This document shows, piece by piece, positions 1 through 4,156 of a DNA stretch of 4,156 nucleotides; the stretch's first letter is position 1; each line of letters begins with the position of its first letter. The notes under the pieces were generated by a model. That model was not told the origin of the DNA. It searched no databases and worked only from the letters and a program-made list of their open reading frames with translations. The stretch comes from a virus (Duplodnaviria; Heunggongvirae; Uroviricota; Caudoviricetes): positions 1 to 4,156 of the IMG/VR virus record IMGVR_UViG_2671180846_000017. The stretch is one strand, 5' to 3'. The position numbers were made by a program, and so were the translations under genes.

Positions 1-266
1 TGGCGCTTATTGTTCGCCAGCAGCGGCTGAAATTAAGCCTGTCCGGAAGGCTGGCGATAAAGATTATTGCCGAGCCACCGGATAAGCGCCGCCGTGACCT
101 GGACAATATTCTGAAAGCGCCACTGGATGCGCTGACGCATGCGGGAGTGTTAATGGACGATGAGCAGTTTGATGAAATCAATATCGTTCGTGGTCAGCCA
201 GTATCTGGTGGACGTCTGGGGGTGAAGATTTACCCCATAATGCTTGAAGGGCTGGTCAAAAAATGA
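1..266 (+). CDS. rusA: RusA-family Holliday junction resolvase, C-terminal portion (5' end lies outside the window)
   Basis: Reading in the frame starting at nt 3 gives ...IKIIAEPPDKRRRDLDNILKAPLDALTHAGVLMDDEQFDEINIVRGQPVSGGRLGVKIYPIMLEGLVKK, ending at TGA 264-266. This aligns with the C-terminal half of E. coli RusA as recalled from memory ([32 protein letters not shown]...KGGRLELTI), including the acidic DLDN and DD catalytic positions. Its stop overlaps the start of the next gene (ATGA, 263-266), as expected for a rusA-Q pair in lambdoid phages. Confidence 0.85.
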   Translation, partial: ALIVRQQRLKLSLSGRLAIKIIAEPPDKRRRDLDNILKAPLDALTHAGVLMDDEQFDEINIVRGQPVSGGRLGVKIYPIMLEGLVKK

Positions 267-1084
267 AACTGGAAGATTTACCGAAATACTACTCCCCAAA
301 ATCCCCCGGCCTGACTGATGCATCGGCCTCAACGTCGAAAGATACGCTGAGTATCACTGATGTGATGGCCGCGCAGGGCATGACACAGAATTGGGCTGAG
401 ATGGGGTTTTCTGCGTTCCTTGGGAAAATGGGCATTAGTATGAATGACAGAGAGCGGGCAACAGAATTGCTGACAGAATATGCACTCAGTCGGTGTGATC
501 GCGTGGCGGCGTTAAGAAAACTCCCGGCAGAAATAAAACCGGCAGTGATGCGTATTATGGCTTCGTATGCGTTTGAAGATTATGCCCGTAGCGCGGCGAG
601 CAAAAAACAGTGCCCCTGTTGTCACGGAAAAAAATTTATTGAAAGCGAGGTTTTTACAAACAAGATCCAGTATCCGGATGGTAAGCCGCCAGTGTGGGCA
701 AAGTGCACAAAAGGCGTGTATCCGTCTTACTGGGAGGAATGGAAAAAAGTCAGGGAGGTGGTAAAAGTTGCCTGTCCGGAGTGTGGAGGGAAGGGGGAGG
801 TTTCCACCGCCTGTAAAGATTGTCGTGGGCGCGGTGTTGCCATTCATCGTGAAGAGTCGGTAAAACGTGGTATGCCTGTTATCAGAGACTGCCAGCGTTG
901 TGGTGGTCGTGGCTATGAAAGATTACCTTCAACGGAGGCATTTAATGCCATATGTAATGTAACCGATGCCATATCTCTTGATACATGGAAAAAAACAGTT
1001 AAACGTTTTTACGATACGCTGGTGGTGCAGTTTGATATTGAAGAAGCATGGGCAGAACAACAACTGAAAAAGGTGACCAGATAG
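263..1084 (+). CDS. Q: Late-gene antitermination protein Q (lambda Q family) with expanded Cys-rich zinc-binding region
   Basis: A 273-aa ORF that is collinear with lambda Q as recalled from memory: YYSPKSP vs FHSPKSP, TDVMAAQGM vs TDVMAAMGM, FLGK vs FCGK, YAFEDYARSAAS vs FAYADYCRSAAT, CQRCGGRGYERLPSTEAF vs CGRCKGVGYSRMPASAAY, TWKKTVKRFYDTLVVQ vs TWSRTVKPLYDALVVQ, and a C-terminal VTR in both. It sits immediately downstream of rusA and immediately upstream of a lambda-like pR'/qut. It is about 65 aa longer than lambda Q because of an insertion in the zinc-finger region. Confidence 0.85.
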   Translation: MKLEDLPKYYSPKSPGLTDASASTSKDTLSITDVMAAQGMTQNWAEMGFSAFLGKMGISMNDRERATELLTEYALSRCDRVAALRKLPAEIKPAVMRIMASYAFEDYARSAASKKQCPCCHGKKFIESEVFTNKIQYPDGKPPVWAKCTKGVYPSYWEEWKKVREVVKVACPECGGKGEVSTACKDCRGRGVAIHREESVKRGMPVIRDCQRCGGRGYERLPSTEAFNAICNVTDAISLDTWKKTVKRFYDTLVVQFDIEEAWAEQQLKKVTR

Positions 1085-1089
1085 CTTTG

Positions 1090-1129
1090 TTGATTTTTCC
1101 CGAATCTGTGGTAAATTTGCCCTAACGAT
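1090..1129 (+). promoter_or_regulatory. Late promoter pR' with Q-utilisation (qut) / sigma70-dependent promoter-proximal pause element
   Basis: -35-like TTGATT (1090-1095), 16-nt spacer, extended -10 TGgTAAATT (1109-1117). The segment GGTAAATTTG...AACGATGGG (1110-1132) closely matches lambda pR' (GGGTAAATTTGACTCAACGATGGG, from memory). By the same spacing the predicted transcription start is A1124, and the -10-like pause-inducing AACGAT lies at 1124-1129. It is positioned directly after the Q stop codon. Confidence 0.6.
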
Positions 1130-1164
1130 GGGCGTTTTATGCCTGACGTTAGAAGATTTTTTAC

Positions 1165-1188
1165 ACCCGTCGCCAGGCGGGTTTTTTT
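1165..1188 (+). terminator. Intrinsic (rho-independent) terminator, tR'-like, downstream of pR'
   Basis: GC-rich hairpin ACCCG (1165-1169) / CGGGT (1178-1182) with loop TCGCCAGG, followed by a run of seven T (1182-1188). It lies about 60 nt downstream of the predicted pR' start, matching the lambdoid arrangement in which Q-modified RNA polymerase reads through tR'. Confidence 0.6.
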
Positions 1189-1291
1189 ATGACTGAAATC
1201 ACGCCAGTACAGTAAACGCGCTGGTGGTTGTGAATACCGGTCTTTCAGCTTGCTGGCTTTTTCGACAAGAGTTATTGGTGTGTCACGTTAA

Positions 1292-1684
1292 CCGGAAAAA
1301 GGAAAGTTTGAGAAACGCGATCTGGCACAGGCGGTTATTAATGCTGCCTACCTGGTGGCCTGTGCAGATGGTGAATGTGAGGCTTCCTAGAAAGCGAAGA
1401 TCGAACAGGTACTGCGTAATCAGCCTGCGCTGTCCGCGTTTACGTCAGAAATTAATGCGATTAGCGCAACCATTATCGGTCAGCTGGATACGAACTTTAA
1501 AATTGGTCGTCGTGCGGCGTTACGTGAGATCGAGGATGTGAAACACGATACGCGTGAAGCGGAAGATGTGCTGGATGTGGCGGTGGCCATTGCGGAGGCA
1601 GACGGCGAAATTGAGCCGGAAGAGCGCAAGGTGCTGGAAGAGATTGCCGGTGTTCTGGGTCTTCGTCTGGAGAATCACCAGTGA
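1292..1684 (+). pseudogene. TerB-family (tellurite-resistance TerB-like) gene remnant: N-terminally truncated with an in-frame amber codon
   Basis: A single frame translates as PEKGKFEKRDLAQAVINAAYLVACADGECEAS*KAKIEQVLRNQPALSAFTSEINAISATIIGQLDTNFKIGRRAALREIEDVKHDTREAEDVLDVAVAIAEADGEIEPEERKVLEEIAGVLGLRLENHQ*. It carries two ADG-acidic TerB-type motifs and aligns with E. coli TerB from memory (KKFMQGTVAVCARIAVASDGVSSEEKQKMIGFL...AVAKSDGNFDDDEKSAVREIAIALGF). The TAG at 1388-1390 falls where TerB has Glu. The frame is closed by TAA at 1289-1291 with no ATG between that stop and the TAG, and the roughly 25 N-terminal residues expected upstream are absent from this frame. Confidence 0.55.
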
Positions 1685-1797
1685 CGGTAAAACTGCGCCT
1701 GGCTGTGGCTGCACTCCTGCTGTTTCTGGTGGTGATGGTGGATTTCACCAGCAGAATCATGTCGGTGCTGGCGGATGGGGTGCTGGTCTGCGGCATT
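1681..1797 (+). CDS. Small hydrophobic (signal-peptide or transmembrane) protein, N-terminal part only; 3' end lost in the N-gap
   Basis: GTG start at 1681 overlaps the TerB-remnant stop (GTGA, 1681-1684), with GGAG 8 nt upstream (1669-1672). Translation is MTVKLRLAVAALLLFLVVMVDFTSRIMSVLADGVLVCGI..., a basic N-terminus followed by a hydrophobic helix, using E. coli-preferred codons (CTG, GTG, GCG rich). The reading frame runs into the N run at 1798, so its length and C-terminus are unknown. Confidence 0.35.
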
Positions 1798-1847
1798 NNN
1801 NNNNNNNNNNNNNNNNNNNNNNNNNNNNNNNNNNNNNNNNNNNNNNN
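1798..1847. other. Run of 50 N (assembly gap or masked sequence of unknown true length)
   Basis: Directly visible: 50 consecutive N characters. The ORFs that the six-frame track shows crossing it (poly-X) are artefacts. Confidence 1.
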
Positions 1848-2012
1848 CAAAAGTGTTGTTTCTGTTTTTCTCAAACTATCATCGTTATCCCTTTATTTCC
1901 GGCTGCGCATGGCGTGGCCTTTTTTTACGACCAGCCACTGGCAGATGGCCATCCTGTAATTTGATTCCGGTTCCGGCTTTTTAACTCTGTTCCTGTACAC
2001 GGGAGAAATTCG

Positions 2013-3950
2013 ATGTCGATTAAACATTATGATGTTGTCAGGGCGGCGTCGCCGTCAGACCTTGCGGAAAAGCTGACACAAAAACTGAAGGAGGGGTGGC
2101 AGCCATTTGGCAGCCCGGTGGCCATCACGCCTTATACTCTGATGCAGGCCATTGCGGCGGAAGGTGATGTCACCACACCTGTGTTGGTGAAGCCGTCGGA
2201 TGGAGAAGGCACAGTAATCAGCGCCACCAGAGACCCGGAGTATTACTTTGTTGTGGTTCTGGCGGGGCAGTCAAACAGCATGGCATATGGTGAAGGCCTT
2301 CCGCTGCCGGAGACATATGACCGTCCGGACCCGCGCATTAAGCAGCTGGCGCGTCGCAGTACGGTGACACCGGGCGGTGTCGCCTGTAAATATAACGACA
2401 TCATTCCGGCGGACCATTGTCTGCATGATGTGCAGGACATGAGCCGCCTTAACCATCCGAAAGCGGACCTGTCAAAGGGGCAGTACGGAACCGTGGGGCA
2501 AGGGCTGCATATCGCCAAAAAATTGCTGCCGTTTATACCGGCGAATGCGGGCATTCTGCTGGTTCCGTGCTGTCGTGGTGGTTCAGCGTTCACCACCGGA
2601 GCCGATGGCACATACAGTGACGCGAGTGGTGCCTCGGAGAATTCAACCCGCTGGGGTGTGGACAAGCCGCTGTATAAGGACCTTATCGGTCGAACAAAAG
2701 CAGCACTGAAGAAGAATCCGAAAAATGTGCTGTTTGCCGTGGTGTGGATGCAGGGGGAATTTGATTTTGGCGGTACGCCGGCAAATCACGCAGCACAGTT
2801 TGGTGCGCTGGTTGATAAATTCCGTGCAGACCTGGCGGATATGGCAGGTCAGTGCGTCGGTGGCTCTGCTGGCGGTGTTCCCTGGATCTGTGGAGATACG
2901 ACGTATTTCTGGAAGCAGAAGAACGAATCCTCGTACCAGACGGTGTACGGCAGCTACAAAAACAAAACGGAAAAGAATATCCATTTCGTACCGTTCATGA
3001 CCGATGAGAACGGGGTGAATGTGCCGACGAACAAACCGGAAGAAGACCCGGACATTCCGGGTATCGGATATTACGGTTCGAAATGGCGTGACAGCTCAGC
3101 CACCTGGACGTCACAGGACAGGGCGAGCCATTTCAGCGCCTGGGCACGCCGTGGGATTATTTCCGACCGTCTGGCAACGGCGATTTTGCGCCATGCGGGA
3201 AGAGTGGCGCTAAACGCGGGGGCATCATCGACAGTATCAGAGGTGCGCCCGTCATCGCCTTCCGGTGCAGAAGCCACAGGCGTCACAACACTGCTCTCTT
3301 ACCTTGCCAGCGAGTCAGAGGGAAGCCTGAAAGTACAGGGATGGTCAGCCAGTGGCGGCAGGGCAGAAGTGGTCAGCGATGCGGAGGGAACCGGAGGTAA
3401 GGCAGTGAAGCTGACCAAGGAAGCCGGTAAAAGCAGCTGGGTGCTGGAGTACGCCGCGGGCAACGGTGCGGCTCTGTTACAGAAAGGGGGGCAGATTCGC
3501 TGCCGCTTTAAGGTTTCGGGAGCGCTGGCTGCGAACCAGTATGTTATGGCGTTTTACTGGCCGGTCTCTTCACTGCCACAGGGCGTTGCCCTGACCGGAG
3601 ACGGGGGGAATAACCTGCTGGCAGCGTTCTACATCCAGACAGATGCAAAAGACCTGAATGTGATGTACCACAATGCGAAAGTGGCGACAAACAACCTGAA
3701 ACTGGGAACCTTTGGCGCATTTGATAACGAATGGCATACGCTGGCTTTCCGCTTTGCCGGGAATAACAGCCTTCAGGTGACGCCGGTTATTGATGGTCAG
3801 GATGGCACACCGTTCACGCTGACGCAGTCACCGGTCAGTGCATTTGCGGCGGATAAACTGCATGTGACAGACATTACCAGGAATGCGACTTACCCGGTAC
3901 TGATAGACAGCATTGTGGTGGAAGTGAACAGCACAGACACTGCGGCATGA
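2013..3950 (+). CDS. nanS-p: Prophage-encoded sialate O-acetylesterase, NanS-p type (DUF1737 N-terminal domain + SASA/SGNH esterase domain + C-terminal putative carbohydrate-binding domain)
   Basis: A 645-aa ORF with SD GGGAG 7 nt upstream of the ATG. It has the GQSNS motif (aa 85-89; Ser87 codon at 2271-2273) and WMQGEFD (aa 245-251), both characteristic of the sialate O-acetylesterase (SASA / YjhS-NanS) family. The N-terminal approximately 60 aa resemble a DUF1737-type domain. Size and three-part architecture match the NanS-p esterases found between the stx locus and the lysis genes of lambdoid/Stx prophages. It ends with a double stop, TGA TAA (3948-3953). Confidence 0.85.
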   Translation: MSIKHYDVVRAASPSDLAEKLTQKLKEGWQPFGSPVAITPYTLMQAIAAEGDVTTPVLVKPSDGEGTVISATRDPEYYFVVVLAGQSNSMAYGEGLPLPETYDRPDPRIKQLARRSTVTPGGVACKYNDIIPADHCLHDVQDMSRLNHPKADLSKGQYGTVGQGLHIAKKLLPFIPANAGILLVPCCRGGSAFTTGADGTYSDASGASENSTRWGVDKPLYKDLIGRTKAALKKNPKNVLFAVVWMQGEFDFGGTPANHAAQFGALVDKFRADLADMAGQCVGGSAGGVPWICGDTTYFWKQKNESSYQTVYGSYKNKTEKNIHFVPFMTDENGVNVPTNKPEEDPDIPGIGYYGSKWRDSSATWTSQDRASHFSAWARRGIISDRLATAILRHAGRVALNAGASSTVSEVRPSSPSGAEATGVTTLLSYLASESEGSLKVQGWSASGGRAEVVSDAEGTGGKAVKLTKEAGKSSWVLEYAAGNGAALLQKGGQIRCRFKVSGALAANQYVMAFYWPVSSLPQGVALTGDGGNNLLAAFYIQTDAKDLNVMYHNAKVATNNLKLGTFGAFDNEWHTLAFRFAGNNSLQVTPVIDGQDGTPFTLTQSPVSAFAADKLHVTDITRNATYPVLIDSIVVEVNSTDTAA

Positions 3951-3951
3951 T

Positions 3952-3987
3952 AAAAAAACCGCCAGCGACAGGAATGGACGCTGGCGG
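3952..3987 (-). terminator. Perfect 9-bp GC-rich hairpin with a U-tract on the minus strand only; candidate intrinsic terminator for leftward transcription
   Basis: CCGCCAGCG (3959-3967) and CGCTGGCGG (3979-3987) are exact reverse complements around an 11-nt loop. On the + strand the hairpin is preceded by A7 (3952-3958) and followed by TGGTGATACC with no T-tract. On the - strand it is therefore followed by U7, the canonical intrinsic-terminator layout. Confidence 0.4.
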
Positions 3988-4085
3988 TGGTGATACCTAT
4001 GGAGAAAAAATAAAGGAACGATACTTTCGTACTCTGGTTTTTTAATGAAAACAGTTCTTATTGTCAACAATAACGGAAAGAAATT

Positions 4086-4156
4086 ATGACATTTCTGAAC
4101 CAGTTAATGCTGTACTTCTGTACGGTGGTCTGTGTGCTGTATCTCCTTTCGGGTGG
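4086..4156 (+). CDS. Small membrane protein, N-terminal part only (window ends); probable lysis holin by position
   Basis: ATG at 4086 with a weak SD (GGAA, 4075-4078). Translation MTFLNQLMLYFCTVVCVLYLLSG... is strongly hydrophobic. It sits immediately downstream of nanS-p, where lambdoid phages place the holin gene S. The holin assignment is positional; I do not recognise the sequence itself. Confidence 0.45.
   Translation, partial: MTFLNQLMLYFCTVVCVLYLLSG

Follow-up and report, generated by a model that had tools for sequence, protein, structure and literature searches.

A 50-base N run in the late region of an E. coli lambdoid prophage very probably conceals the end of tciB and the 5' part of an STnc100/PasD-family small RNA

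The window analyzed here, a stretch of 4,156 bp, corresponds to the late-gene regulatory region of an E. coli lambdoid prophage (Table 1). The two hairpins with T-runs that directly follow the Q gene probably represent the late-operon tR', where Q antitermination takes place; an Rfam search of this hairpin region (1085-1190) gave sub-threshold matches only (suhB, STnc370). tR' is also the site of short transcripts from pR', StxS of Stx phages being an example. The tciA gene found further downstream carries an in-frame TAG at 1388-1390 and its homologue is flagged with an "internal stop" by RefSeq. The next gene, tciB, is interrupted by the only N run of the window, which counts exactly 50 bases, as the preliminary description of this DNA had reported; with the ATG of nanS-p at 2013, the 165 bp at 1848-2012 are left without an annotated gene. 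The nanS-p product matches the Pfam families SASA (44.5 bits), DUF1737 (56.7 bits) and DUF6645 (248.2 bits), and it is named "SASA family carbohydrate esterase" in RefSeq. In this prophage type, DUF1378 and DUF826 are located between the esterase and the holin genes. Since these two intervene before the holin, PasA, if present, would be located outside of the window; when we looked for PasA or PasC in 3941-4156 by comparison with the intergenic region of E2348/69, no significant similarity was detected.

Table 1. Features of the window and, numbered from the first hidden base ("hidden nt"), of the interval that closed homologous loci carry at the position of the N run
Feature	Position	Strand	Remarks
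rusA, 3' end	up to 266		Pfam RusA
Q antiterminator gene, 273 aa	263-1084		Pfam Antiterm, 168 bits
Two terminator-like hairpins with T-runs, directly after Q	1118-1134 and 1165-1182 (within 1085-1190)		probably tR'
tciA (TerB-family) pseudogene	~1322-1684	+	Pfam TerB, 32.4 bits (translation of 1391-1681)
tciB (DUF3927 small membrane protein), first 39 codons	1681-1797	+	GTG start at 1681; interrupted by the N run
N run, 50 bases	1798-1847		placeholder
tciB, last 16 codons and TGA	hidden nt 1-51		reads VVLLWPVIKRNSLHNA plus stop
-35-like TTGATT	hidden nt 48-53		putative promoter element
-10-like TTAAAA	hidden nt 71-76		putative promoter element
sRNA, first 115 nt, structured core	hidden nt 85-199		bounded by GCAUGGUG...CACCAUGC
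sRNA, visible 3' part, 79 nt	1848-1926	+	STnc100/PasD family
nanS-p leader	1927-2012	+	Shine-Dalgarno GGGAG at 2001-2005
nanS-p, phage 9-O-acetyl sialate esterase gene, 645 aa	2013-3950	+	DUF1737, SASA and DUF6645
DUF1378 ORF	starts at 4087

The preliminary description had considered that the true length of the gap may differ from 50 bases and had proposed a comparison with complete genomes, which indeed resolved the content of the gap. As a query against complete-genome records, we used 450 bp centered on the gap (200 bp, the 50 N and 200 bp). This query matched 850 records, 645 of which (644 genomes, E. coli) carried both flanks in one place. To read the length of the interval, 45 of these two-flank places were sampled evenly along the ranking: the span was 599 bp in 27 of them, 600 bp in 17 and 601 bp in the last one. 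Compared with the 450-bp query, these spans correspond to an interval of 199-201 bp, and not 50 bp, in 45 out of 45 places, while direct extraction gave 199 nt in each of five closed loci (L001, L002, L004, L006 and L009). The split between 599-bp and 600-bp spans matches a polymorphism in a T-run downstream of the gap, with seven Ts in the window, L002 and L009 and eight in L001, L003 and L004. A reverse query was then built from the closed L001 sequence (465 bp, in which the 199-bp interval is preceded by 100 bp and followed by 166 bp of flank) and was found as one contiguous stretch in 645 records (644 genomes), 322 of them at ≥99% identity, so that the number of records is the same for the two flanks and for the contiguous interval. 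Two of the closed loci are particularly close to the window: L002 (NZ_AP042644) is 100% identical to it over 1303-1797 (495 bp) and 1848-2012 (165 bp), and L009 (O145:H28 12E115) is 100% identical over 1551-1797 and 1848-2600. The flanks of the gap belong to a multi-copy prophage repeat: the number of matching places in a genome is 5 at the median and reaches 10, which would explain why a short-read assembly broke at this position. The arbitrary length of the N run is thus that of a scaffold placeholder in a draft assembly, and the mystery attached to it is an assembly artefact.

In the closed homologous loci, the interval starts with the last 51 nt of tciB. The completed gene encodes a 55-aa protein (WP_000216636.1) that is annotated in every closed locus and that matches Pfam DUF3927 with 62.3 bits over positions 2-50 of the 53-position profile. 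These 51 nt are the only real coding sequence of the interval: other ORFs, which might have pointed to a protein-coding moron, are at most 61 aa long, lie inside the sRNA described below and have their frame shifted by the T7/T8 polymorphism, and the peptides from two of them gave no Pfam match. No tRNA was found either by ARAGORN (in the window and in L002 3400-4000) or with the Rfam tRNA model (in L001 and L002), and the closed interval contains no tandem repeat. Concerning the suggestion that a hidden gene, tRNA or repeat may be located in the gap, it therefore turned out to be right for the end of a gene, to which a known sRNA has to be added, and wrong for a tRNA, a toxin, a new moron or a tandem repeat; the tRNA prediction that had been called for gave nothing with ARAGORN in the window.

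Upstream of the 5' end of the sRNA, every variant that we compared keeps the same layout, in which TTGnnn is followed after 17 nt by TTAAAA (TTAGAA in one variant) and then, after 7 or 8 nt, by a G. This promoter-like layout is kept in the tciB-type, stx1-type, stx2-type and JLK-2012 contexts despite their differing surroundings, and we propose that it may function as a dedicated σ70-type promoter whose -35 element would overlap the stop codon of tciB. The two observations behind this proposal are the conserved TTGnnn-17-TTAAAA layout and the mapped 5' end of PasD2 (see below); a scan of the closed interval with a strict σ70 consensus returned no promoter, the -10 element being weak (TTAAAA/TAAAAA).

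The remainder of the interval belongs to an sRNA of the STnc100 family (Rfam RF02076, gathering score of 47 bits), which is known from prophages of gammaproteobacteria. In closed loci of the window type, the STnc100 match scored 103.4 bits in L001 and L002, 104.7 bits in L004 and L009 and 100.8 bits in L006; it begins at hidden base 56, covers the full length of the model and ends at the base equivalent to window position 1876. At the equivalent position relative to the esterase gene, L005 and Stx1a/Stx2a phages scored 146-187 bits. A search of the window alone gave no STnc100 match, either at the gathering threshold or at E≤10, since about 115 of the 194 nt are N and only the last ~29 positions of the model are visible; the few weak Rfam matches that the window did give (asX2, mir-1260b and others) were far below their own thresholds and were disregarded. 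Judging from the model match, window-type elements are members of RF02076. They share with other STnc100 RNAs the closing stem GCAUGGUG/CACCAUGC, the CCCCC...GGGG, GGRUUCAG/CUGAAYUC and CCGGGAGGCACCCGG hairpins, and the slot after a moron (stx or tciAB) and before nanS-p. They differ by a shorter central variable arm (a match of 173 nt, versus 202-216 nt in L005, L007 and L008), by a score of ~104 bits instead of 146-187 bits in L005 and Stx phages, by a 3' hairpin of the model that aligns weakly to 1856-1876 while the real terminator is 25 nt further on, and by a terminator of the PasD type rather than of the GGGGC...GCCCC type of L005 and L008. Using RNAalifold on seven variants, the closing stem and the three hairpins were recovered, with compensatory pairs at 83-105 (GC/AU) and 87-101 (AU/GC/UA), which is modest support from a small sample. 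Folding of single sequences was unexceptional (z = -1.0 for the 194-nt RNA and z = -0.6 for 1848-1930), and the Rfam closing stem is absent from the minimum free energy (MFE) structure of the full RNA.

STnc100 RNAs have already been described in Stx phages. In an Stx2 phage, STnc100 is located 75 nt downstream of stx2 (PMC12370729), where it overlaps the Hfq-binding sRNA EcOnc27/sRNA103 encoded downstream of stx2B (PMC12711010), whose overexpression raised fimZ and espA transcripts according to work cited in PMC12711010. A second relative is PasD. PasD2 of EPEC E2348/69 is Hfq-dependent and was mapped by RNA-seq to NC_011601 741157-741328 on the plus strand (Pearl Mizrahi et al. 2021, PMC8550237 Table S6). 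PasD1 and PasD2 are abundant, give discrete Hfq-dependent Northern bands of 172-173 nt and have many RIL-seq partners in the core and accessory genome; EcOnc13 is the EHEC homologue of PasD (PMC8550237), and a literature search on EcOnc13 within a limited library returned nothing. Zhu, Shabalina and Storz (bioRxiv 10.64898/2026.05.13.724894) concluded that PasD and STnc100 have a common ancestor, and they also located pasD directly upstream of the sialate esterase gene.

The slot of PasD2 is that of the gap, with a DUF3927 gene on one side and a SASA esterase gene on the other, and PasD2 could be aligned with the window-type element at both ends. Its first nucleotide corresponds to the G in GCATGGTG / GCATGGTGAATCC (hidden base 85), and its last one to the final T of the run that follows the hairpin GGCTGCGCAT(G/T)GCG..GCC, which corresponds in the window to the hairpin at 1901-1919 and the T-run at 1920-1926. 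From these two ends, a length of ~194 nt is expected for the window-type RNA, of which 115 nt are hidden and 79 nt visible. The two RNAs resemble each other in their 5' end sequence GCAUGGUGAAUCC and in their terminator GGCUGCGCAU.GCG..GCC with its U-run, and their nanS-p leader and promoter-like upstream region are nearly identical. The core of PasD2 is, in contrast, shorter (172 nt versus 194 nt overall), without the separate CCGGG/CCCGG hairpin, and PasD2 is below the STnc100 gathering score, unlike window-type elements with their ~104 bits. The experimentally validated PasD2 (L010 1658-1829) is therefore missed by Rfam STnc100 at the gathering threshold when window-type elements are detected, showing that Rfam-based annotation labels some members of the family and misses others. 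A further difference concerns the PasD seed UGUGAG, located immediately 5' of the terminator (PMC8550237 fig. S5), which is replaced by CUUUAU in the window type, where ...CCCUUUAUUUCC precedes the terminator; the tail of the window type also carries a 13-nt insertion. With its seed replaced and this insertion, PasD targets cannot be transferred to the window-type RNA, for which a different target set is expected. From these alignments, the window-type element is a relative of PasD and not PasD itself, and it is intermediate, having a multi-helix core of the STnc100 type and a tail and terminator of the PasD type.

The 165 bp that follow the N run are fully accounted for by the tail of this sRNA, its terminator and the nanS-p leader. 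The tail at 1848-1900 is U-rich and mostly unpaired, and the equivalent region carries the seed in PasD. Although this region had been described as having no clear terminator, a canonical intrinsic terminator is found at 1901-1926, with an 8-bp stem (six G-C pairs) and a 3-nt loop at 1901-1919 directly followed by the seven Ts, and its stem is predicted for 1848-1930 by the MFE as well as by the centroid fold. The leader at 1927-2012 is 100% identical in L002 and L009; its GGGAG is located 7 nt before the nanS-p ATG, and scanning its plus strand revealed no σ70-like promoter.

Altogether, it is very probable that the N run hides about 199 bp (199-201 bp) consisting of the end of tciB, a promoter and the first 115 nt of a ~194-nt STnc100/PasD sRNA. 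Closed in the strain of the window, the sequence across the gap would be expected to read GTGGTATTGCTGTGGCCGGTGATAAAAAGAAACAGCCTGCATAATGCTTGA, then ...GCATGGTGAATCCCCCTGTGCGGAGGGGC...CACCATGCTTTGCCA, and to contain GCATGGTGAATCCCCC...CACCATGC. We infer the content of 1798-1847 in this strain wholly from homologues, and a small residual chance exists that its gap departs from the norm of 199-201 bp. The preliminary description was thus correct in supposing that the gap hides genetic content, most likely the 3' end of tciB, a promoter and ~115 nt of sRNA; its alternative, that the N run stands for only a few bases without coding capacity, does not describe the closed loci, where the interval is not trivial and its content is catalogued.

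The gap had also been placed exactly at the toxin/moron position, which is imprecise. In the Stx2a phage L008, the order is tRNA-Ile/Arg/Arg, stx2A, stx2B, STnc100 and esterase, while it is the same three tRNAs, tciA, tciB, STnc100 and esterase in L004, L006 and L009. From these matching gene orders, the stx-equivalent slot is tciA/tciB (~1322-1797 plus the first 51 nt of the gap), so that only these first 51 nt of the gap are in the slot and the rest, which is most of it, is just downstream. The window otherwise has the backbone of the moron region of Stx phages (Q, cargo, STnc100, nanS-p, DUF1378 and holin), but its cargo is tciA (pseudogene) and tciB instead of stx, and a tRNA block and an HTH gene are deleted from it, a variability that is not seen inside the gap. 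Indeed, window 1-1305 corresponds to L004 501-1805 and window 1303-1797 to L004 3355-3849, with a junction at 1303-1305, and the 1549 bp in between (L004 1806-3354), present in L004, L006 and L009, are missing from the window. Besides the first ~50 nt of tciA, whose loss leaves this gene 5'-truncated, the deleted segment contains tRNA-Ile/Arg/Arg and two genes, one of them small and hypothetical, the other encoding an HTH domain; the deletion is common to the window and L005 (O145 RM9154-C1). That the tRNA block may be hidden in the gap was ruled out, since these tRNAs are upstream of tciA in relatives and deleted here. The window is also a mosaic of prophage haplotypes: 1-1302 is nearest to L004/L005 (99-100%), identity is complete with L002 over 1303-2012 and with L009 over 2013-2600, and L009 is the nearest locus from 2013 onward. 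Such mosaicism is typical of lambdoid recombination and the gap is not specially involved in it.

We then considered what else the gap and its right flank may represent. One scenario is that the gap of this particular strain hides larger or different content, for instance an IS element, an additional moron or an STnc100 variant like that of L005. This would explain why the assembler failed to bridge a gap whose length is, by definition, not given by its Ns, and there are precedents: L005 shares the left 1797 bp with the window at 99.2% before continuing with a different sRNA variant and spacer, and transposases interrupt the pasD2-esterase-pasA region in 28 loci, compared to 248 for the commonest arrangement (bioRxiv 10.64898/2026.05.13.724894 supplement). 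We nevertheless consider it very unlikely, since all 45 sampled two-flank loci have 199-201 bp, both-flank and contiguous-interval records are equally numerous (645), the right contig starts with the window-type tail (1848-1900) that is absent from L005, and the multi-copy nature of the element alone explains a break in a short-read assembly. That the contigs ending at 1797 and starting at 1848 come from two prophages of one genome and were joined into a chimeric scaffold appears highly improbable: even if the window is a mosaic and each flank has several copies in a genome, the one closed haplotype of L002 covers both sides of the gap without a mismatch over the 495 bp on its left and the 165 bp on its right, and the same adjacency is found in 644 genomes. 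Should the join still be wrong, the contigs would nonetheless end inside tciB and inside the sRNA, and the annotation of 1848-2012 would be unchanged.

The right flank might instead be coding, either because a protein gene with its body in the gap ends at TGA 1962-1964 or because a minus-strand ORF at 1893-2027 is real, a possibility that we regard as practically negligible. The plus-strand frame is open, as the preliminary description had noted, and reads ...FPAAHGVAFFYDQPLADGHPVI* (ORF 1554-1964), but it is not the C-terminus of a gene hidden in the gap: in closed loci it is at most 54 aa long, begins at a GTG that falls within the sRNA hairpins and runs across the terminator, and the T7/T8 polymorphism makes it differ between near-identical loci. 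On the minus strand, PGAP/RefSeq annotates a partial "hypothetical protein" pseudogene at 1893-2037 in every closed locus (for example at L001 3839-3982), overlying the sRNA terminator and the start of nanS-p, and JLK-2012 has the CDS PP_43 there. However, PGAP itself flags this feature as frameshifted/incomplete, and neither the peptide of the plus-strand frame nor the 44-aa minus-strand ORF matches a Pfam family. Since it lacks a Pfam match and is antisense to the sRNA, the minus-strand annotation is probably an inherited artefact. A last scenario accepts the RNA element but gives it another role: the STnc100 core may act mainly in cis in the late transcript, as a processing, stability or leader element for nanS-p. 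Its invariable position, after stx or tciAB and with the esterase gene following directly, would suit such a role, as would its highly conserved multi-helix core, which is unusual for Hfq sRNAs, and the lack of a nanS-p promoter between the sRNA and the gene. This scenario nevertheless seems unlikely when considering that PasD is a discrete Hfq-dependent band of 172-173 nt with many RIL-seq partners (PMC8550237), that a strong terminator separates the element from nanS-p, that the conserved promoter-like layout is positioned exactly at the mapped 5' end, and that EcOnc27/sRNA103 is bound by Hfq and changes fimZ and espA levels when overexpressed (as cited in PMC12711010).

In lambdoid late operons, nanS-p is transcribed from pR' by a Q-modified, terminator-resistant RNA polymerase. 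The terminator and the promoterless nanS-p leader fit such Q-driven transcription. Starting from the length and content of the gap in homologues, their Rfam membership, the terminator and the alignment of both ends with PasD2, homology with PasD1/PasD2 and EcOnc27 suggests how the trans-acting sRNA that we favor may work, in terms of promoter use, Hfq dependence, action in trans and read-through. In a lysogen, the sRNA would be made from its own promoter and would end at the 1901-1926 terminator; Hfq would bind and stabilize it via the U-tract of this terminator, and the unpaired stretch directly 5' of the terminator would serve for base-pairing in trans with mRNAs. Upon prophage induction, Q-modified RNA polymerase coming from pR' would read through the terminator into nanS-p and the lysis genes.

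The locus is an ordinary one, in which the sRNA always precedes nanS-p and whose hidden content, a known sRNA and the end of a known small gene, is already catalogued. It is rather unlikely, but conceivable, that the window-type element, which 644 complete E. coli genomes carry, is a functionally distinct and uncharacterized member of the family with its own target set, or that its nearly invariant core is a protein- or ligand-binding module and not just a passive scaffold. More generally, copies of STnc100/PasD-family sRNAs can go unseen behind the fixed-length N runs of draft STEC/EPEC genomes, so that surveys of sRNA copy number on draft assemblies will undercount them. This family is of clinical interest, since SNPs in the STnc100/EcOnc27 region downstream of stx2 are among the features that predict HUS (PMC12711010). 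Concerning its taxonomic range, a scan of 596 Gb of genome contigs for GCATGGTGAATCCNCC was uninformative: among the matches listed, only chance ones in unrelated phyla were found, with ~1,000 chance matches expected (an estimate based on 15 specified bases and 596 Gb). Finally, in the Stx1a phage L007 (LC645428), an Rfam match to AgvB, the anti-GcvB sRNA, was observed at 3189-3248 on the minus strand, with 56.6 bits for a threshold of 56; it lies on the strand opposite to STnc100 and abuts its 3' end.
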